IMG/VR virus record: IMGVR_UViG_2695420485_000017
Source: a virus
Taxonomy: Duplodnaviria; Heunggongvirae; Uroviricota; Caudoviricetes
Direction: 5' to 3' (one strand)
Length of the DNA: 38,866 nucleotides
Of the stretch, positions 1-38,866 are shown piece after piece. The notes below the pieces were generated by a model that saw only the letters and a list, made by a program, of their open reading frames with translations, did not search any database and was not told the DNA's origin. Numbering within the stretch: position 1 is the first letter of the stretch; each line of letters begins with the position of its first letter. The position numbers and the translations under genes are program-made.

Positions 1-1167
1 TCAGGCCTTATGGTGGAAATAATCACTCAGGCGGGAAAACATGCCGCCTTCCCCGACAGATTCCAGGGTAACCAGCGGCCAGTGCGCCACCTGTTTATCA
101 CGGTCGTAAAGTTCAATTTCCCCTACCCGCTGATGGGCGCTAATTGGCGCGGTGAGCTCTTTACCATCAAGGGTATATTTGGCTTTGATATGTGGAATTT
201 CGGCTTTCGGTAGCACCATCCAGAACTCTTGTTCCGTTCCCAGGTCGATATTTTCTTTATCGCCATACCAGATGCGTTCCGTTCCGACCTTTTTCCCACG
301 GTGCAAAATTTGCACCGTAGTAAAGTTTTGTTGCCCCCAACGCAGTAATTTTCTTGCCTCTTCCTCACGACCTTTTGCACTGTCAGCCCCCATTACCACT
401 GCAATGAGACGACGCTGCCCATCTACAGCCGAAGCAATGAGATTAAACCCGGCACCAGAAGTATGACCCGTTTTCAGGCCGTCAACATTCATGGTTTTAT
501 CCCACAACAACCCGTTACGGTTTTGCTGGGTGATACCGTTCCAGGTGAGACTTTTCTCACTGTACATATGATAAAACTCGGGCTCGCCGTGGATGATAGC
601 GCGAGAAAGCACAGCTAAATCATAAGCCGAGCTATGCTGGCCAGGTGCATCCAGACCATGCACTGTTTCAAAATGCGTATCCTTGAGATGCAGCTTCTCG
701 GCATAGTTGTTCATCATTTCAACAAACTGCCGTTGCCCACCGGCAATATAGTCAGCCAGAGCAACACAAGCGTCATTTCCGGAATCCACAATTAAACCAC
801 GGCTTAAATCACGTACCGATACGCGATCGCCCTCTTTCAAAAACATCAGTGAAGAACCGACAAACACCGGATTATCTTTCGCCCACGCATCGCGCCCCAC
901 GGTGACAATATCGTCTGGCGTAATGCGATGACTATCGATAGCGCGATCCACGACATAACCCGTCATCAGCTTTGTCAGGCTGGCGGGATTGCGCTGTTGA
1001 TGCTCATTACCCGCGGTGAGGATCTGACCGGTGGTGTAATCCATCAATACCCAGGACCCGGCATGAATCTCTGGAGGCTGAGGTAAAAAAGGAATGTTTT
1101 CCGCCGCAAAACCAGACGATAAGTTAAAAACGAACAAAGAAGCAGCAATAATAAGACGGCGTTTCAA
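1..1167 (-). CDS. dacD: D-alanyl-D-alanine carboxypeptidase DacD (PBP6b)
   Basis: Full-length ORF matching recalled E. coli DacD (MKRRLIIAASLFVFNLSSGFAAEN...); probable TTG start at 1165-1167, ORF track extends to 1173. Confidence 0.9.
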   Translation of the reverse strand: MKRRLIIAASLFVFNLSSGFAAENIPFLPQPPEIHAGSWVLMDYTTGQILTAGNEHQQRNPASLTKLMTGYVVDRAIDSHRITPDDIVTVGRDAWAKDNPVFVGSSLMFLKEGDRVSVRDLSRGLIVDSGNDACVALADYIAGGQRQFVEMMNNYAEKLHLKDTHFETVHGLDAPGQHSSAYDLAVLSRAIIHGEPEFYHMYSEKSLTWNGITQQNRNGLLWDKTMNVDGLKTGHTSGAGFNLIASAVDGQRRLIAVVMGADSAKGREEEARKLLRWGQQNFTTVQILHRGKKVGTERIWYGDKENIDLGTEQEFWMVLPKAEIPHIKAKYTLDGKELTAPISAHQRVGEIELYDRDKQVAHWPLVTLESVGEGGMFSRLSDYFHHKA

Positions 1168-1375
1168 CAGCAAACCCTCAGGAGTTTCAAATAGCTGTTC
1201 TTTTTACGGAAATACTTATGAACTGGCTGGAATAAAGTGCAAGAAAATGTGACTACCCTCTCATTTTTATCTGACATGATCTGTTGCCACTCGCTGCCAA
1301 ATTGTGGCGCTAAAGCTGATTAGCACGGTGATATTTGATACTCTGGCAGACAGCAGAAATAACGGATTTAACCTA

Positions 1376-1438
1376 ATGATGAATGACGGTAAGCAACAAT
1401 CTACCTTTTTGTTTCACGATTACGCGCAACACCCCTGA
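1376..1438 (+). pseudogene. sbcB: 5' fragment of exodeoxyribonuclease I gene sbcB, interrupted by prophage insertion
   Basis: Translates MMNDGKQQSTFLFHDY, matching recalled SbcB N-terminus, then diverges (AQHP-stop); divergent to dacD as in E. coli. Confidence 0.55.
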
Positions 1439-1526
1439 GAACCGCCATGAACAAGGGTTTCATGATTTGTGATTTTAGTTTGGTACGCAATTTGGTACAC
1501 AACACAATTTTCACTTCAGCGGGTAG

Positions 1527-1573
1527 TCATCAAACTCACCATAACGAGCATCGTTGATGATGTATGTGATCAC
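1527..1573. repeat. 47-bp direct repeat copy 1 (possible integrase arm-type/att-arm element)
   Basis: tcatcaaactcaccataacgagcatcgttgatgatgtatgtgatcac; about 42/47 identical to copy at 1835-1881. Confidence 0.6.
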
Positions 1574-1796
1574 CACAAATATCACATCTGGACTAGTTCC
1601 GTCTTCATGCGCAAGTATCTGTTCACGCCTCCCTTTCTGCAAATCCTAAAGATGAGATTTTGGGGTTTTGGGATATCTTTTATCCTCAGTTCTCTATCCA
1701 TTCTTAAAAGCAGCAATGGACCATCACCGTGTGATAGTGAGACATCCGCTACGTTAAGCGCAGAGAAATGATGCAGTGGTGGGCTGATTGGCTTGA

Positions 1797-1819
1797 TGAA
1801 AAGGTGGCATAGCGCCACC
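1797..1819 (-). terminator. Rho-independent terminator candidate downstream of tailspike
   Basis: GGTGGC-atagc-GCCACC hairpin followed by TTTT on minus strand. Confidence 0.45.
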
Positions 1820-1834
1820 TACATAACCGGACAA

Positions 1835-1881
1835 TCATCAACCTCACCAGAACGCACATCGTTGATGATGTATGTAATCAC
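1835..1881. repeat. 47-bp direct repeat copy 2
   Basis: tcatcaacctcaccagaacgcacatcgttgatgatgtatgtaatcac; pairs with 1527-1573. Confidence 0.6.
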
Positions 1882-1932
1882 TCCTAAAACTTGCCGATAA
1901 GTATCAGCGTCCTCATTCACTTGGAATGGCGC

Positions 1933-1965
1933 TATAACCCTGCAGATATGGAGGACAGGGTTATA
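1933..1965. promoter_or_regulatory. Perfect 10-bp inverted repeat (TATAACCCTG / CAGGGTTATA, 13-nt spacer)
   Basis: Seen directly; no flanking T-run, so more likely a protein-binding site or RNA hairpin than a terminator. Confidence 0.35.
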
Positions 1966-2006
1966 ACGGAGGCATTGTTAACCGCCTTCCTTGGTGATGA
2001 CTTATC

Positions 2007-3464
2007 TTAAACAACAATTTTAAGGAAGTTTGAAGCATCCTTATAAATGGTGCCCGCGGGGGCGCCGTTTATCTCCTCAAGCGTTTTTACGTTCTTCAAA
2101 ACCACCTTGCCATCTTCCAGAAATTCAATGCATGGTGCGTCGTTGTTCATGTTTATTTTCAACGAACCAACAGCACTACCTCCGTTTCCGCTTATCCATT
2201 CAAGTGACGCAATAGGAAGTGCATTGCCGTTGTGATCTGTCCCTTGTAGCAAGATCATTCCAGTTCCTACCCCTGGTATTCTGATAGCTGCGCGACCACC
2301 ATCCTCTAAAACTACTTCCAAAATTTCTTTAGGATATTTTGTGTGCACCCCTACACGCGTCAGCGAACCACCACCAGGGACGACGGCAATACCTGGAATA
2401 AGCGATTCTGCAAAAAGCATCACTGAGTCTTTATGTGGATTGATTGCTGGCTTATCGTCATTAGTGCCGCTCCCTATCGCAATCGAACCACCATAAGCCT
2501 GAATATTCTTACCTACAGCAAAAGAGCCATCTCCTGCCGCGCGAGTTCGATATCCAATGGCCGCCGCACCAATGCCATCACTTGCAACCCCGCCGGGGTC
2601 TGTAGTGTATCCCGGTCTGGCTTGCGTAAAATAACCTGTTGTAAAAGCCGCCCTTGAAAGCGCTTCCGTTTCTTCACAGAATGCGGCAGATTTTGCGCCA
2701 AGAGCAATGACATTTTTCCCAAATGCAAAAGAGCAGTACCCTTCAGCATTTGGTGAGGTAATTTGATCTGGGTCGCCAGTAGCAGAACCAGCACCACCGG
2801 CAATAGATGCCACGCCATACGTAACGCAGTCATGCCCGAAAGTTGTGGTGTATACCGCGAATGACGCACCGTTTCTGTTAAAAGATACGGAGTAGTCGCC
2901 AATCATGGCTGGGTTTCCCCATGAGTTTTTTGATGGAAGCCCTCGCCAGTAGTTCTTCTCGTCATCTAGCGGCTCAAGATCAGAGCCACCAACTCTAAGA
3001 GATCCTTTTCCCTTATCAAATAACCACATCACCCCCTGAGTCAGTGATGATCCAGTTGGTCTTCCGTAGTTTACCTTCTGCCCGATCAGCTTCATTCCAT
3101 CGTCCTGAGCCAGCTCATTTCTCAGGGTGTTTGGATTATATTTAAGCACGTCAGAAAAATAGTGCTGCCGTACTCCTTGAGCATCATAAACAGCCATAGA
3201 ATGGCCTTGCACAGTTACGAACTTGGCAATCTGTCCGTTATATACCGGATATCCAGCAGCGTTAATGATGATTGGTTGAGAAACAGGAACGTGAGATCCA
3301 TCTTCGTTCTCCACATAAACCTGAATCTGGTTTTCAGGATTTACCGGGTCAGTGTCAATTTTACCGATATAAATTTTTCCATTGGCTACGGCTTTAAAAG
3401 AACGAGCCATAGTGAAGAGTTGCGAAGGCATCGATACGATCACATTGGCTGTAATGTCTGTCAT
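2007..3464 (-). CDS. Tailspike/tail fiber with P22 gp9-like head-binding N-domain and unrelated Gly-rich C-terminal domain
   Basis: First ~110 aa (MTDITANV...[13 protein letters not shown]...) resemble P22 tailspike N-terminus; ATG with GGAG RBS; last gene of late module. Confidence 0.85.
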
Positions 3465-3521
3465 TTAATTTGCTCCAGATACAATGAATCGCCGCAGCAT
3501 GGCTACGGTGAATTTTGGGCA

Positions 3522-3547
3522 TAAAAAAACCCAGCCGAAGCTGGGTC
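3522..3547 (-). terminator. Rho-independent terminator after ant
   Basis: ACCCAGC-ttcg-GCTGGGT stem followed by T7 on minus strand, 18 nt after ant stop. Confidence 0.7.
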
Positions 3548-3564
3548 GTTGCGTTGGTTATCTG

Positions 3565-4500
3565 TCAGTAGTTATGTACTGAAGGAGGCAATTCTTTATT
3601 CTTAAGTCTCATCCATGCGGAAAGATTCGTTGGTCCGTCTGGCTCATTAATATCAACATCTCGTGTGTGGTTTATTAAAACGTCTCTCGCCATTCCGATA
3701 ACATACGAGAATTCATGACCGTAGTCGTAGCATCTGCCGGAATAGTTCGATTGAATTTGTTTTAGCGCCGGATACAGTTCGCGGAATAATGCCTGTGAGC
3801 GGTTGGCATAATCCCATAACCATACAAGGCTGTTTGCTTCTTTTGCAGAAAGCTCGTTTGCTTTCTTCTCTTGTTTGCCGATTAACTCGCCTTCAAGCGG
3901 AACGCGAGCTGCAAGTGACAGAGCTTCGGTAAACTGCTCATCGCTGATTTCTTTGTATGAACACCCAAAATGAGATTTCAGCGACGACCACATGGTAATC
4001 ATTGCCTTCGCCTGTTTTTCTTTTGGCAGAGACTGACCGCGACTCATGACGAGTTGTTTAATGGCTTCCTGCTGTTCAGTGGTGATTTTACCCGGCAACG
4101 CCTTTTTAGCTTTGCGTGGGTTAACTACATGGCCTTTAGTCCAGTAGTCATGCAGCACGCTAAAGCATTCCTCCTGGTACTGAATCAGTTTATCGCGGAT
4201 GTCAGCTCGAACTTTCTCAGGGTTGATGCTGAACAGCCATCCATTTAACTTCTTCAAAGGAAGGCAGAGTAGCTTACGAAGCTTCCCATCAGCGGCAACC
4301 ATATTCATATGAATACAGTTGAACTTATCTAGTTGTTTCATAAGTTTTTGTTGCTGAGTACCCCAACTCATTCCAAGGTTTTCAACGATTGGCTTCATCG
4401 CAACGTATGCAACTCCGGCAGCCATGGCGGTGATAATTTGCTGACCGTTGAATGGTACGTAAGAGGTGTTCACTGCTTCTAAAATTGCTATACTATTCAT
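3565..4500 (-). CDS. ant: Antirepressor Ant (P22 immI)
   Basis: Follows arc in operon with Oarc/Omnt; N-terminus [10 protein letters not shown]... starting at ATG 4500 (ORF track extends upstream via TTG). Confidence 0.8.
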
Positions 4501-4502
4501 GT

Positions 4503-4570
4503 TGGTTTTTCTCCACGGATTTACTGACAACCGAAGCCCTGACTGTTCCCGCAGTTGGGGCTTCAACTTT
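4503..4570 (+). ncRNA. sar: Candidate sar-like antisense RNA covering ant RBS/start
   Basis: Plus-strand -10 TACTAT (4491-4496) inside ant 5' end; hairpin GAAGCCC...GGGCTTC at 4532-4562; arrangement as described for P22 sar. Confidence 0.35.
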
Positions 4571-4730
4571 ACGCGCCAATGCGCCCTTCCTTCTTAAAGC
4601 TTTCCATTACTCTCTGATAAATCTCAGAGTTAACAGACCGACCATTCTCTTCCGCCACCTTGCGTACCAAATCCAATACTTCTTTAGGCCACCGCAAATT
4701 GAACTGCGGCATTTTGCTCATTCCTTTCAT
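4569..4730 (-). CDS. arc: Arc repressor
   Basis: 53-aa product [53 protein letters not shown], near-identical to recalled P22 Arc. Confidence 0.9.
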
Positions 4731-4744
4731 GTTCACCTCACAAT

Positions 4745-4765
4745 ATAGGTCCACGGTGGACCTAT
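4745..4765. promoter_or_regulatory. Mnt operator (Omnt)
   Basis: Perfect palindrome ATAGGTCCACGGTGGACCTAT matching the known P22 Mnt operator. Confidence 0.85.
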
Positions 4766-4769
4766 TGAG

Positions 4770-4798
4770 AATATAGTAGAGTGCTTCTATCATGTCAA
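4770..4798 (-). promoter_or_regulatory. Pant promoter overlapping Arc operator
   Basis: Minus strand -35 TTGACA, 17-nt spacer, -10 TATATT; Arc operator ATGATAGAAGCACTCTACTAT (4773-4793) lies in the spacer. Confidence 0.75.
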
Positions 4799-4820: not shown

Positions 4821-5072
4821 ATGGCTAGAGATGATCCGCACTTTAACTTCCGTATGCCTATGGAAGTAAGGGAGAAATTAAAATTCAGGGCGGAGGCGAA
4901 TGGGAGATCAATGAACTCCGAGTTGTTACAAATCGTCCAAGATGCTCTATCAAAACCATCGCCTGTGACTGGATATCGTGACGATGCAGAACGACTCGCT
5001 GATGAGCAGTCAGATCTTGTTAAGAAGATGGTGTTTGATACGCTGAAGGATTTGTACAAAAAAACCACCTGA
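4821..5072 (+). CDS. mnt: Mnt repressor
   Basis: 83-aa product MARDDPHFNFRMPMEVREKLKFRAEANGRS... matching recalled P22 Mnt; RBS GGAG upstream. Confidence 0.9.
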   Translation: MARDDPHFNFRMPMEVREKLKFRAEANGRSMNSELLQIVQDALSKPSPVTGYRDDAERLADEQSDLVKKMVFDTLKDLYKKTT

Positions 5073-12021: not shown

Positions 12022-13439
12022 TACTCAATCCTTATCTGGCAGCCAGACAGAGTGACAGGTGACTTAGTGATAACGCGCAATTTGAAGCCGACATTTTTCC
12101 TTATTCGCCCGACGCGCTTCCACAAAACGCGTTTGTCGTAAACGAACGGTTCATTCTGCTCAATCATCTGCTCACGCCCGTAATTGATGCCGTCAGTGGT
12201 TGCAGAGAGAAAAAGGCGGTCAGCATACTGCGCAACGCCAGTTGAAGATTCAACTTCAAGGTCGAAAACTCTGGCGTTATCCGCTTTGAACAACGGAGTA
12301 AACAGCAGGTGTTCCTGCTGCTTGTCGTACTGGCTGCTGATATCGAACTGCAATTTGCCGGTAACCGATTCCAGCTTATCGCCGCACGTTATCTGATTGC
12401 CTTCGTAAATGAAGTCGATAGCGCGGTACACATCATCATACAGTCCTGTTTTCAGCACACACCATTGCGGACCATTGGCGCTTGAAGATGCGTCGTACAC
12501 GAGAACATGGCGCGGAAGGTGGATAATCAGCAACTCATGAGCATCAAATCTCAGCGATTCCATCACACCATCAGCCAGTTCATCAGCAGTGTAGGAGCGG
12601 AGGATTTTCTCAATGCTCGCGCTGGCGATTGGTGACACCTGACCGGAGCCGATGATGTATACAGACGGCGCACCTGTTGCCGGATTGCTGATGAATGCAT
12701 AAGAATCAGCAAACGGCGTTTTGCAGTAAGTCCCGGCAATGCCTTTCTGCACCATCAGCGATGGTTGTGCAACATACAAAGCGGCACCAACGGTGGTTGC
12801 ACCAGTCAGGGAGAAATATTCAATCGTCGATGAACCAAAGCAGACGATGAAGTCTCGCCATGTCCCGATGCCGATGATGCCGTCCGGCTGCGATTCTGCG
12901 CGATATTGTGCGCTGTAGCGGTCAGGATGCGATTCGTCTTCAAGGTCAGTGATAAACCATGAATCAGTTCCGTCTTTTGACCACGCATAACGCCCACGTA
13001 AGCGCGTAATGTCGCGAACTGAACCTAACTCGTACTGTGTGAATCCGCTGTCTGTAGGCCAGTTTGAGACGGTTTTAACCGTGCCATCATAGCGGTATTC
13101 GACCAGTTGCCCGTTAACGCCTACCGCCTGTGATGTTCGACCATGCGCCATTGATACGCGACCACTTCCGGCAACATCACCGACCTCACTTTCGCCCTTA
13201 TACAGTTTGCCACCACACACGCGATAAACAGCATTCTGCGCCATGTTGTACTCGACGCCTCGCGATACGCCGTTCACATCAGAACGTTTGGCAATGCCCG
13301 GGAATGAGCGAAGATATCCGCTGCTGTTCAGGATTTCTTTGGGTGTAGCCAGCATATTCACTGGCAGATAGTCGATATAGTCGGCGTTTCGAAAGTCTTT
13401 GCCGACACCTTTCATAAGCGGAAGTTGCTGAATCGGCAT
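12021..13439 (-). CDS. Tail hub protein, P22 gp10-like
   Basis: 472 aa; strong similarity to recalled P22 gp10 ([11 protein letters not shown]...SGCQIRIE). Confidence 0.9.
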
Positions 13440-36041: not shown

Positions 36042-36523
36042 CTGGACATGCAGCAATTCTCGACATGTGCTGTGGCAGTCGCATGTTCTGGTTCGATAAG
36101 AAGGACGGCCGGGCGATATTTAGCGATATCAGAAAGGAAGAGCACACATTGTGTGATGGACGACGGCTGATAATTAGCCCTGACCTGATAGCAGATTTTC
36201 GTGCATTACCATTTGCAGACGCATCGTTTCCGGTTGTTGTATTCGACCCTCCGCATCTTGAGCGTGTTGGTGATAACGCCTGGATGGGAAAGAAATATGG
36301 ACGGCTGAATAAAGATACCTGGCGTGATGATTTGCGGCAGGGATTTAAAGAAGCCTTTCGTGTGTTGCGGCCATACGGCGTTCTGATTTTTAAATGGAAT
36401 GAAACGCAAATACCTGTTCGCCAGATATTGGCACTGACCGACAGAAAGCCTGTTATCGGTCAACGAACAGGAAAGGGTGACAAGACCCACTGGATTATTT
36501 TTATGAAGGAGGGCAACCAGTGA
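36038..36523 (+). CDS. Putative SAM-dependent (DNA) methyltransferase
   Basis: Motif I-like ILDMCCGSR and motif IV-like FDPPH; GTG start 6 nt after AAGGAGG. Confidence 0.65.
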   Translation: MTGHAAILDMCCGSRMFWFDKKDGRAIFSDIRKEEHTLCDGRRLIISPDLIADFRALPFADASFPVVVFDPPHLERVGDNAWMGKKYGRLNKDTWRDDLRQGFKEAFRVLRPYGVLIFKWNETQIPVRQILALTDRKPVIGQRTGKGDKTHWIIFMKEGNQ

Positions 36524-37290
36524 GCCAGATTGATTATCAAAAGCTTCGTGAAATCGCTGAAAAAACAAAAATTGCCGGTGAAGCACCTGTAATGCCTTTC
36601 GATCAGCGAATTAATGCGCTTAACGATTTTATGAAGCACTTTTCGCCAGATATCGCGCTGGCATTGCTGGATGAACGGGAAAGAAACCAGCAATACATCA
36701 AATCCCGCGATCAGGAGAACGAGGATATTGCGCTAACGGTAGGGAAGCTGCGTGTTGAGCTGGAAGGCAAAGACAGCAAAATAGCCAATCTTACCGCCGA
36801 ACGCGATGCTCTTCGTGAAGGTGAGATGGGCGACGCTAGGCATAGCAACACACGGGCCGCAGCTGATATCTACTTCCAACTGGTCGAGGAGTGCGAAATT
36901 CCTGCTGGCGGTTCTCTGGTCGAGTACGTTGACGATATGCGCGAGAAGCTGGAAGCCGCAGAGAAGCGCAACGCAAAATTACAAAGAGAGAATGCATACA
37001 TCCGCAACCGGTACAAAGAACTGGACCTATTAATCGGGAAAAACATTCTGGTCATGCAGGCTGCGATTATCGAATGGCAATCGACTGGCGACGCTAAAAG
37101 CGGACTGGCATGGATTTATAACACACTGTTTGGCCCAGGCGAATTACCGGACGAATCTGAGAAAGATGCTCAGGCCTACTTTAATCGCAAATATGCACCG
37201 ATTGACGAAAAGCTTATGGAGCTTCACAAGTGGTTTTGGGAACAAAGTGAAGCCGAGCGCGCCGCTGGCATTCGCATCAAAGGAGAGTGA
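36520..37290 (+). CDS. Hypothetical coiled-coil protein (Ea22-like position)
   Basis: 256-aa ORF with GTG start after AAGGAGGG RBS; charged helical sequence. Confidence 0.5.
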   Translation: MSQIDYQKLREIAEKTKIAGEAPVMPFDQRINALNDFMKHFSPDIALALLDERERNQQYIKSRDQENEDIALTVGKLRVELEGKDSKIANLTAERDALREGEMGDARHSNTRAAADIYFQLVEECEIPAGGSLVEYVDDMREKLEAAEKRNAKLQRENAYIRNRYKELDLLIGKNILVMQAAIIEWQSTGDAKSGLAWIYNTLFGPGELPDESEKDAQAYFNRKYAPIDEKLMELHKWFWEQSEAERAAGIRIKGE

Positions 37291-37291
37291 T

Positions 37292-37441
37292 ATGGCTAAG
37301 TACATCGTGACTATCGAAGGATTTAATGATTGCAAGGTTGTTGAGTTTGAAGCAGACACGCCAGAGGATGCCGAAGAAATAGGCAGAGACATATTCTATG
37401 AAGAATGCAACTACGGCGTATCACCTGCTACAGAGGACTAA
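37292..37441 (+). CDS. Hypothetical small acidic protein
   Basis: 49-aa ORF MAKYIVTIEGFNDCKVVEFEADTPEDAEEIG... with AAGGAGAG RBS. Confidence 0.45.
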   Translation: MAKYIVTIEGFNDCKVVEFEADTPEDAEEIGRDIFYEECNYGVSPATED

Positions 37442-37444
37442 CAC

Positions 37445-38065
37445 ATGACCACTTTAACCGACAAAGAACTGATTAAAGAAATCAAAGAGCGCATAGGCAG
37501 CTTGGACGTTCGAGACAATATTGAGCGCCGTGCTTATGAAATTGCACTGGCATCACTGGAACGCGAACAGATTCGCCACGAGCATGCCAAATGGTCTGAC
37601 TCCACATTTGGCTGCGTTGGCCCCATTGGTCCACTGAAACACCTCTCAAAAGAGGCACTGGAAGCCGCAGCCGAACCAGACGATCTTAGCGAGTGGGCTG
37701 ATATGCAGTTTCTGTTGTGGGATGCACAGCGCCGTGCTGGCATCAGCGATGCTGAAATTACCGCTGCTATGAAAGATAAATTGAAGATCAACATGGAGCG
37801 CCAGTGGCCTGAGCCAAAAGATGGTGAGCCTCGCTTGCACATTAAAGAACCCGGCAACTCTCCGGTAACTCCGGATGGCTGGATAAGCTGTAGTGAGCGA
37901 ATGCCGGACGACGCGCAGTGGTGCGTAGTTGACGCCGCAGACGGGTATTACGTGCAATGCTGGTCTGAAGGTCAAGGATGGCTTGGAGATGACATCAGCC
38001 TACGTAATTGCGATGTAATCAGATGGATGGCGATTCCTGAACCGCCGGAGCAGGATGGTGAATGA
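37445..38065 (+). CDS. Hypothetical protein (DUF550/DUF551-like)
   Basis: 206 aa; C-terminal WISCSERMPDD...YVQCW...VIRWMAIPEPP resembles the recurrent prophage DUF551 pattern. Confidence 0.55.
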   Translation: MTTLTDKELIKEIKERIGSLDVRDNIERRAYEIALASLEREQIRHEHAKWSDSTFGCVGPIGPLKHLSKEALEAAAEPDDLSEWADMQFLLWDAQRRAGISDAEITAAMKDKLKINMERQWPEPKDGEPRLHIKEPGNSPVTPDGWISCSERMPDDAQWCVVDAADGYYVQCWSEGQGWLGDDISLRNCDVIRWMAIPEPPEQDGE

Positions 38066-38151
38066 TGCCGCCAGTTAAAGTTGTGATTATCACTTTGGTG
38101 ATGATAGTGATTGCGAGAATCATGTCTGGTGAAGTTTGGTGGATATGGTAA
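38062..38151 (+). CDS. Candidate 29-aa hydrophobic mini-protein
   Basis: MMPPVKVVIITLVMIVIARIMSGEVWWIW, single predicted TM helix; ATG overlaps upstream stop; below ORF-track cutoff. Confidence 0.3.
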   Translation: MMPPVKVVIITLVMIVIARIMSGEVWWIW

Positions 38152-38252
38152 TGACCAAGGAAGCAGCAGAGCGCAACTAACAATCCTCGCACTGACGGTG
38201 ATTTCTTTTATCTGAACTCGCTACGGCGAGTTTTGTTTTATGGAGACAAGAA

Positions 38253-38597
38253 ATGTCAGATTTGGCTATGAAGATTTTGAAATGGCAATCGACTGGCGAT
38301 GTCGGCATCAGTAGCGCAACTCTTGCCTCAATCGCGTGTGGACTGAAAAAGAATATCTATGGTCATCACTTCGGCGCTCCACATGACGCAGCCGATTTCC
38401 GACGATGCGTTGCACTTGTTGAGCAGATTCCAGAAATCAGATACTCATTCGACAAGGTTGCAAAGCGCGTTCCGGCATTCAAAGGAATCCTCAACGAATG
38501 GGATTCTCTCGTTGCTCTGTTGAAGTCTGAAATGAAGATACACGGAAACAAAGCACCAGAGACTTACAGAAGAATCAGCGAGCTACGCAAGGACTAA
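38253..38597 (+). CDS. Hypothetical protein
   Basis: 114-aa ORF with GGAGA RBS; shares WQSTGD motif and 19-bp DNA identity with the Ea22-like gene. Confidence 0.5.
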   Translation: MSDLAMKILKWQSTGDVGISSATLASIACGLKKNIYGHHFGAPHDAADFRRCVALVEQIPEIRYSFDKVAKRVPAFKGILNEWDSLVALLKSEMKIHGNKAPETYRRISELRKD

Positions 38598-38635
38598 CGC
38601 CTCACACTCGATGAGGCCTGTACATATCTGATAGA

Positions 38636-38659
38636 GCCGCTATATGGCGGTTTCTTTTT
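38636..38659 (+). terminator. Weak terminator-like hairpin before xis
   Basis: CCGC-tatat-GCGG followed by TTTCTTTTT. Confidence 0.35.
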
Positions 38660-38674
38660 GCCTGGAGAATTAAG

Positions 38675-38866
38675 ATGACCGATACCAGCCTGATTCCTGA
38701 GAAAGAAGTGATGAACAAGCTCGGTGTTTCATCACGTCAGACAATCTGGAACTATACCAAACGGCACGGATTTCCGAAGCCAGTCAGAACCCACCCCAAA
38801 TCATACCTTCGTGAAGCTGTTGAAGGGTGGATTCTTAACGGTGGCGTTAATCAGAAATGCTCCTGA
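38675..38866 (+). CDS. xis: Excisionase-like DNA-binding protein
   Basis: 63 aa with HTH-like core, GGAGA RBS; last gene of PL operon, where int-xis is expected; stop at window end. Confidence 0.6.
   Translation: MTDTSLIPEKEVMNKLGVSSRQTIWNYTKRHGFPKPVRTHPKSYLREAVEGWILNGGVNQKCS

Follow-up and report, generated by a model that had tools for sequence, protein, structure and literature searches.

A P22-type prophage at the 2851-type site in sbcB, where a phage-borne gene start most probably rebuilds full-length exonuclease I

When a prophage lies in the 5' end of sbcB, the gene for exonuclease I (ExoI), does the lysogen lose the enzyme, or does the far end of the prophage give the gene a new start? 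The question arises from a stretch of viral DNA of 38,866 nt (IMG/VR record IMGVR_UViG_2695420485_000017; the whole stretch is referred to here as the window), in which a sequence-only reading had placed such an insertion at 1376-1438 and had named both outcomes. Our answer, given with high confidence, is that these positions are the int-distal junction of a P22-type prophage at the 2851-type sbcB site, and that a start carried by the phage rebuilds a full-length ExoI.

The dacD-side junction

The left end of the window passes from host to phage DNA through four features.

1-1173, minus strand: dacD (penicillin-binding protein 6b), host flank; a 390-aa ORF; in every E. coli hit, the matched segment is annotated as dacD
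1174-1375, plus strand: native dacD-sbcB intergenic region (202 bp), 100% identical to uninterrupted loci
1376-1424, plus strand: stranded start of host sbcB, comprising 16 codons and one further base (MMNDGKQQSTFLFHDY)
1425-1438, plus strand: phage-derived tail of the orphan ORF, AQHP and then TGA; the same sequence follows the core in the attP of free phages

Positions 1376-1438 read ATGATGAATGACGGTAAGCAACAATCTACCTTTTTGTTTCACGATTACG followed by CGCAACACCCCTGA, with the translation MMNDGKQQSTFLFHDY followed by AQHP and a stop. The first 16 residues are those of wild-type SbcB (MMNDGKQQSTFLFHDYETFG...; reference L002:2777-4204), and the TGA at 1436-1438 closes the frame, leaving an orphan ORF of 20 codons. 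We searched 5,426 complete E. coli genomes by megablast with window positions 1100-1900 as the query. Among the matches listed, all uninterrupted dacD-sbcB loci span query positions 1-325 (i.e., window 1100-1424), at up to 100% identity (E = 2e-168). Because the matches to uninterrupted loci stop at this point, host DNA ends at 1424, after codon 16 and one further base, and phage sequence begins at 1425. The match also takes in the 5' end of dacD and the whole intergenic region in the correct synteny, which excludes a coincidental likeness to the SbcB N terminus. The earlier description of this strand, as 16 SbcB residues that diverge into phage DNA with an early stop, was thus accurate, as was the placement of a prophage in the 5' end of sbcB. 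The junction is the int-distal one, hence attR by the convention used for lambda and Sf101. The 20-codon ORF beside dacD is the discarded native start of sbcB; the native promoter presumably lies within 1174-1375 and is now severed from the body of the gene.

The att core

1412-1424, plus strand: att core TTTCACGATTACG, in which the crossover falls, covering codons Phe13-His14-Asp15-Tyr16 plus the first Glu17 base

When attB, attP, and the two junctions were aligned four ways, TTTCACGATTACG was the sole stretch identical in all of them. The alignment with uninterrupted E. coli sbcB, which had been proposed as a check, showed a clean reciprocal exchange of the arms on either side of this 13-bp core. 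The core has a single exact occurrence in the window, at the host-phage boundary. In the Sf101 paper (PMC4159516), which is also our source for the phage 2851 site that it cites, the attP of both phages is given as the 13-bp 5'-CGTAATCGTGAAA-3', of which TTTCACGATTACG is the reverse complement. The same 13 bp are annotated in the mEp234 record as "prophage attachment site (type 2851)" and in the phage 1717 record as "duplication due to insertion of stx2c phage." Within the codons spanned by the core, Asp15 and Glu17 belong to the set of conserved residues with which ExoI binds metal (PMC3675492). That sbcB is a known site of prophage integration had been stated in the sequence-only reading, and the literature bears this out for phages 2851 and Sf101 (PMC4159516) and for the Stx2c phages of O157 (PMC3519850, PMC8309913); sbcB is among the four standard Stx-prophage insertion sites used in O157:H7 genotyping (PMC3519850, PMC8309913).

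The phage arm between the core and the tailspike gene

1425-2006, strand not assigned: right (P') arm of attP and noncoding prophage end; matches the attP regions of mEp234, E212, Sf101, and 2851
1480-1488 and 1492-1500: pair of direct TTGGTAC(G/A)C repeats, 56-76 bp past the host-phage boundary
1513-1573 and 1821-1881, minus strand: two 3'-terminal fragments of humD/umuD-like (S24 peptidase) genes

The DNA beyond 1424 is 91-96% identical to the P' arm of attP in mEp234, E212, Sf101, 2851, and 1717. The motif TTGGTAC(G/A)C is enriched, with four matches in the window versus 0.4 expected; two of the four lie in the P' arm, and another three, oriented alike, occupy the P arm, between the core and int. 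Because the motif is enriched there and the integrase has a domain that binds arm DNA, we regard the repeats as candidate arm-type Int sites. The two humD-like fragments, which are leftover cargo between attP and the tailspike gene, form a 61-nt direct repeat (82% identical, 308 nt apart); in other genomes, PGAP labels their equivalents as incomplete "HumD family" or "S24 family peptidase" pseudogenes. At 1803-1821 lies a GC-rich hairpin with a perfect 7-bp stem (AGGTGGC-ATAGC-GCCACCT), followed on the minus strand by TTTCATC; it falls under the T-run threshold of our scan but may be a terminator of leftward (tailspike/late) transcription.

The int-side junction

The window stops short of the other junction, its last gene being the following.

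38675-38866, plus strand: xis-like HTH gene; the window ends at its stop codon

We therefore read the int-side junction from a matching contig beyond the window. An exact-protein match to the 206-aa product of 37445-38065 returned one contig, CYGS01000015.1 of assembly GCA_001277635.1 (L004 below), which contains the last 11,422 nt of the window with no mismatches. Judged by this identity, GCA_001277635.1 is the source assembly or that of an identical strain. It is a short-read draft, with a scaffold N and a repeat in the region concerned. Two genes on this contig are needed here.

L004:11403-12581, minus strand: int, 392-aa tyrosine integrase (PF13356 and PF00589; arm-binding and catalytic domains)
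L004:13689-15113, plus strand: hybrid sbcB (RNase_T, ExoI_SH3, and ExoI_C domains)

Past the end of the window, the order is int, a 181-bp P arm, a substitute sbcB start, the 13-bp core, and the remainder of sbcB. The inspection of the int-proximal junction that the sequence-only reading had called for thus yielded both the rest of sbcB and the duplicated core. The integrase is identical to that of mEp234 at 388 of 392 positions and to that of Sf101 at 387 (99% in both cases). Its gene is transcribed away from sbcB, divergently across the P arm and opposite in direction to xis and the PL operon; the final 20 nt of the xis-like gene (38847-38866) overlap the 3' end of int, which lies on the minus strand.

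The contig also holds a complete attP junction alongside the two host junctions (L004:12371-13734). This attP consists of int, the P arm, the substitute ATG (12763), the core (12796-12808), and then 487 nt identical to window 1425-1911; a single N at 13296 is followed by an exact 392-nt repeat of 12371-12762 and then by the sbcB junction. The attP copy is 98.8% identical over 341 nt to those of HK544, HK140, mEp234, and E212 and 95.6% identical to that of Sf101. The extra copy is either a tandem dilysogen collapsed by the short-read assembly or the product of excised-circle reads threaded into the scaffold. The presence of attP and both host junctions in one assembly would imply working Int recombination under either origin.

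A phage-borne start completes sbcB

Immediately to the left of the core in attP, the phage carries a start codon and 10 further codons, ATG ACA GAC ACA GAT AAA CAA CCT ACC TTC CTC. Joined to the host body of the gene, they give an open ExoI reading frame of 474 aa (475 aa in the wild type) that is identical to a wild-type allele at 466 of 474 positions, with the differences attributable to the phage confined to residues 1-9. The hybrid N terminus MTDTDKQP replaces MMNDGKQQS and is one residue shorter; the Asp15-x-Glu17 metal ligands are retained, and the ORF aligns over its full length with the sequences of ExoI crystal structures. Of the two outcomes named at the outset, the second, in which the other junction restores a 5' end, is the one that holds as far as the reading frame can tell, with an uninterrupted 474-aa ORF in the source assembly and in four RefSeq lysogens.

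A codon-wise comparison beginning at native Met2 gives 10 of 15 residues in common between the substitute and native starts, with synonymous differences at Phe11 (TTT/TTC) and Leu12 (TTG/CTC). The shared residues together with the synonymous differences mark it as diverged coding sequence rather than random DNA. Across phages, the substitute codons vary by one synonymous change (AAA/AAG) and one nonsynonymous change (Asp3Gly, in Sf101); with the att/int module 95-100% identical across phages, there are too few changes to test for purifying selection on these codons. A scan of 185,579 species-representative genomes for DNA encoding DKQPTFLFHDYETFG returned one E. coli contig only. Since this sole match is from E. 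coli, the substitute start is not a recognizable copy of the native sbcB start of another represented species.

These features fit a mechanism in which a tyrosine recombinase integrates the phage site specifically at the "2851-type" site, with its 13-bp core in sbcB codons 13-17. Integration strands the native promoter and the first 16 codons beside dacD as the 20-codon orphan ORF and joins the phage-borne start to the sbcB body next to int, giving the full-length 474-aa ExoI. Transcription and translation of the hybrid gene, which points away from int, would then depend on signals within the phage P arm (181 bp).

The prophage

Inside the dacD-side junction, the phage genes begin with a tailspike and a P22-type immunity region.

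2007-3464, minus strand: tailspike gene, first of the prophage genes past the junction (PF09008 Head_binding, E = 3.4e-63)
3565-4566, minus strand: P22-type antirepressor gene ant (P22_AR_N/C)
4501-4568, plus strand: sar antisense RNA (Rfam RF00262, 95.6 bits; gathering score, 43), which overlaps ant at its 5' end

Small arc/mnt-like ORFs (4569-4793, minus strand; 4821-5072, plus strand) together with ant and sar make the P22-type immI region complete. The sar RNA was the only family matched in the Rfam scan, and no tRNA genes were found in the scan of the window. Genes diagnostic of the P22 type were found throughout, i.e., the head-binding tailspike, ant with sar RNA, portal, terminase, coat, and ejection proteins. 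Of window positions 3500-28000, 58-61% match HK620 and its P22-like podovirus relatives; the identity is about 96%, as it is between the morphogenesis genes and those of HK620. By this gene content, the element is an HK620/Sf6-like prophage of the P22 type (Lederbergvirus type), of which the window holds nearly all, from the int-distal junction to xis. Its genes further include those for an anti-RecBCD protein and an Erf recombinase.

At 485 aa, the tailspike is short, and its receptor-binding part, beyond the conserved head-binding domain, is uncommon; the best matches to the tailspike part are P22-like prophages at other sites, e.g., by intS/argW in strain GPEC1446. At a coverage of 80% or more, neither window 1100-3600 nor window 36500-38866 was matched by any of the 5,426 complete E. 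coli genomes.

The element might instead be a decayed, immobile remnant and its junction a fixed scar in place of a working att site. The two humD-like fragments beside the junction do indicate local decay, and many prophages at the sbcB site in other strains are mosaic or bear pseudogenes. Against this, the P22-like gene set here is uninterrupted from tailspike to xis, the integrase is full length, and a complete attP alongside both host junctions needs an excised circle or a tandem integration, i.e., working Int recombination. We consider the remnant reading unlikely, although it is the best placed of the alternatives weighed here, and favor a prophage with a functional att site.

Distribution in E. 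coli

The int-side junction was found in 582 and the dacD-side junction in 565 of the 5,426 complete E. coli genomes (about 10%). For comparison of the hybrid gene, we used unrelated lineages, namely, a goose isolate, an ST131 blood isolate, an O157:H7 strain, and the source strain. The same layout recurs in BR1220, ST131 p11A, and O157:H7 strain 9234, where sbcB is annotated as an intact, ordinary gene of 1,425 nt; in RefSeq, sbcB is intact and without a pseudogene flag in the four lysogens inspected. About one in ten E. coli genomes (565-582 of 5,426) would thus carry sbcB behind expression signals supplied by a phage.

Strain BR1220 (NZ_CP093068.1, 1900784-1942709) has the same sbcB int/attP module on an entirely different phage body, with baseplate J/gp47 and tail-fiber genes and with tRNA-Asn and tRNA-Thr. 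Because the module sits there on a different body, the att/int cassette moves between unrelated phage backbones.

These data bear on the reading of genotypes. In the literature on Shiga toxin-producing E. coli (STEC), the sbcB site is mostly termed "occupied" or "disrupted" (PMC3519850, PMC8309913). Such a call in O157 prophage-insertion genotyping should not be equated with an ExoI-null genotype, because the coding sequence is rebuilt with a phage-encoded N terminus.

Expression of the hybrid gene

We infer that the hybrid sbcB is expressed from the P arm and that its product is active, since unrelated lineages all have the ORF intact and an sbcB-like start has been kept in frame by the phage. 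Direct inspection of the upstream DNA added little. A strict sigma-70 scan upstream of the substitute ATG gave no promoter, and no convincing Shine-Dalgarno match was seen there; a lenient scan of the P arm gave only two weak candidates, TGGACA-19-TATATT and CAGACA-17-GACAAT. The native dacD-sbcB intergenic region likewise had no strong sigma-70 consensus in the strict scan and only weak candidates in the lenient one. Strict terminator scans of the two regions likewise yielded nothing relevant. Because the native upstream region scores no better than the P arm, the promoter scans are uninformative either way. Our literature search found no report on the expression or activity of hybrid ExoI in such lysogens. 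Any PL read-through beyond xis would run antisense to int and in the sense direction into sbcB.

A reading frame that is formally rebuilt may still be silent or poorly expressed from phage DNA, in which case lysogens would be ExoI deficient. The unrecognizable promoter and ribosome-binding site upstream of the substitute ATG would fit such a loss, as would the treatment of the locus as "disrupted" in the STEC literature (PMC3519850). The gene layout points the same way, in that the only codirectional transcription from upstream is PL/xis read-through antisense to int, which is repressed in the lysogen. However, the hybrid ORF is intact in all lysogens examined (the goose isolate, ST131, O157:H7, and the source strain), and an in-frame ATG with 10 sbcB-like codons that differ synonymously from the native ones would be purposeless if untranslated. 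The negative scan itself weighs little, given that the same scans gave no consensus promoter for the native upstream DNA either. An ExoI-deficient lysogen is accordingly improbable in our estimate, a little more so than the remnant considered above, and an expressed hybrid gene remains the preferred reading.

Slightly less probable again is that the replacement of the promoter, the leader, and the first nine residues is not neutral, so that, in about 10% of E. coli strains, ExoI levels are retuned or become responsive to Int, Xis, or induction. In the P-arm DNA that takes the place of the sbcB signals lie, in addition, the candidate Int arm sites and the promoter of the divergent int gene. Because ExoI degrades single-stranded 3' ends and the phage additionally encodes an anti-RecBCD protein and Erf, a nonneutral replacement could shift the lysogen toward a partial "recBC sbcB-like" state that favors phage recombination; defense systems that sense or depend on ExoI could also be altered.

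The least credible alternative, that the SbcB match is coincidental or the locus an assembly chimera with no real insertion in sbcB, draws on the short-read draft source and on the N and 392-nt repeat of its int-side region, but we reject it with near certainty because the 325-nt match (up to 100% identity) is syntenic with dacD and ends exactly at the published core, and because the identical junction recurs in 565 complete, largely long-read genomes and the reciprocal one in 582.

Comparison with known systems

The site, the core, and the integrase have all been published and annotated, and the feature is not new in kind. All testable defining features of the 2851-type int/attP module (the Stx2c phages 2851 and 1717, plus Sf101, mEp234, HK544, and HK140) were found here: (i) an identical 13-bp core, (ii) the same position between dacD and sbcB, (iii) an integrase that shares 99% identity with its mEp234 and Sf101 counterparts, and (iv) homologous attP arms, 95.6-98.8% identical over 341 nt. 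In att and int, the present prophage shows no difference from this module; only the rest of the phage differs. In contrast to the 2851-type phages, it has an HK620/Sf6-like podovirus backbone and a different, 485-aa tailspike and is without stx and oacB. Among described phages of the same virus type, the nearest is Sf101, a P22-like Lederbergvirus of Shigella that integrates in sbcB (PMC4159516). Between attP and its tailspike gene, Sf101 has the O-acetyltransferase gene oacB, where the window has humD-like fragments only, and the substitute codon 3 of Sf101 is GGC (Gly) rather than the GAC (Asp) found here.

The arrangement belongs with a wider class of insertions. Gene-preserving integration, in which attP bears a substitute copy of the displaced gene end, is reportedly treated in Campbell's reviews of insertion sites. 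Examples are the lambdoid phage 21 and the element e14 at the 3' end of icd, as well as phages in tRNA genes. The sbcB locus conforms to this pattern, with a diverged in-frame copy of the displaced end in attP and a full-length ORF in the lysogen, and because the gene stays whole, the finding is an ordinary one. As with phage 21 and e14 at icd, the phage brings a diverged copy of the displaced segment, so that the ORF of the lysogen is complete and its terminal residues are phage encoded. Unlike those elements, which replace a 3' end, this prophage replaces the 5' end, a less common twist; the phage must therefore supply the start codon, the translation signals, and the promoter, and the regulation of a host gene passes to phage DNA.
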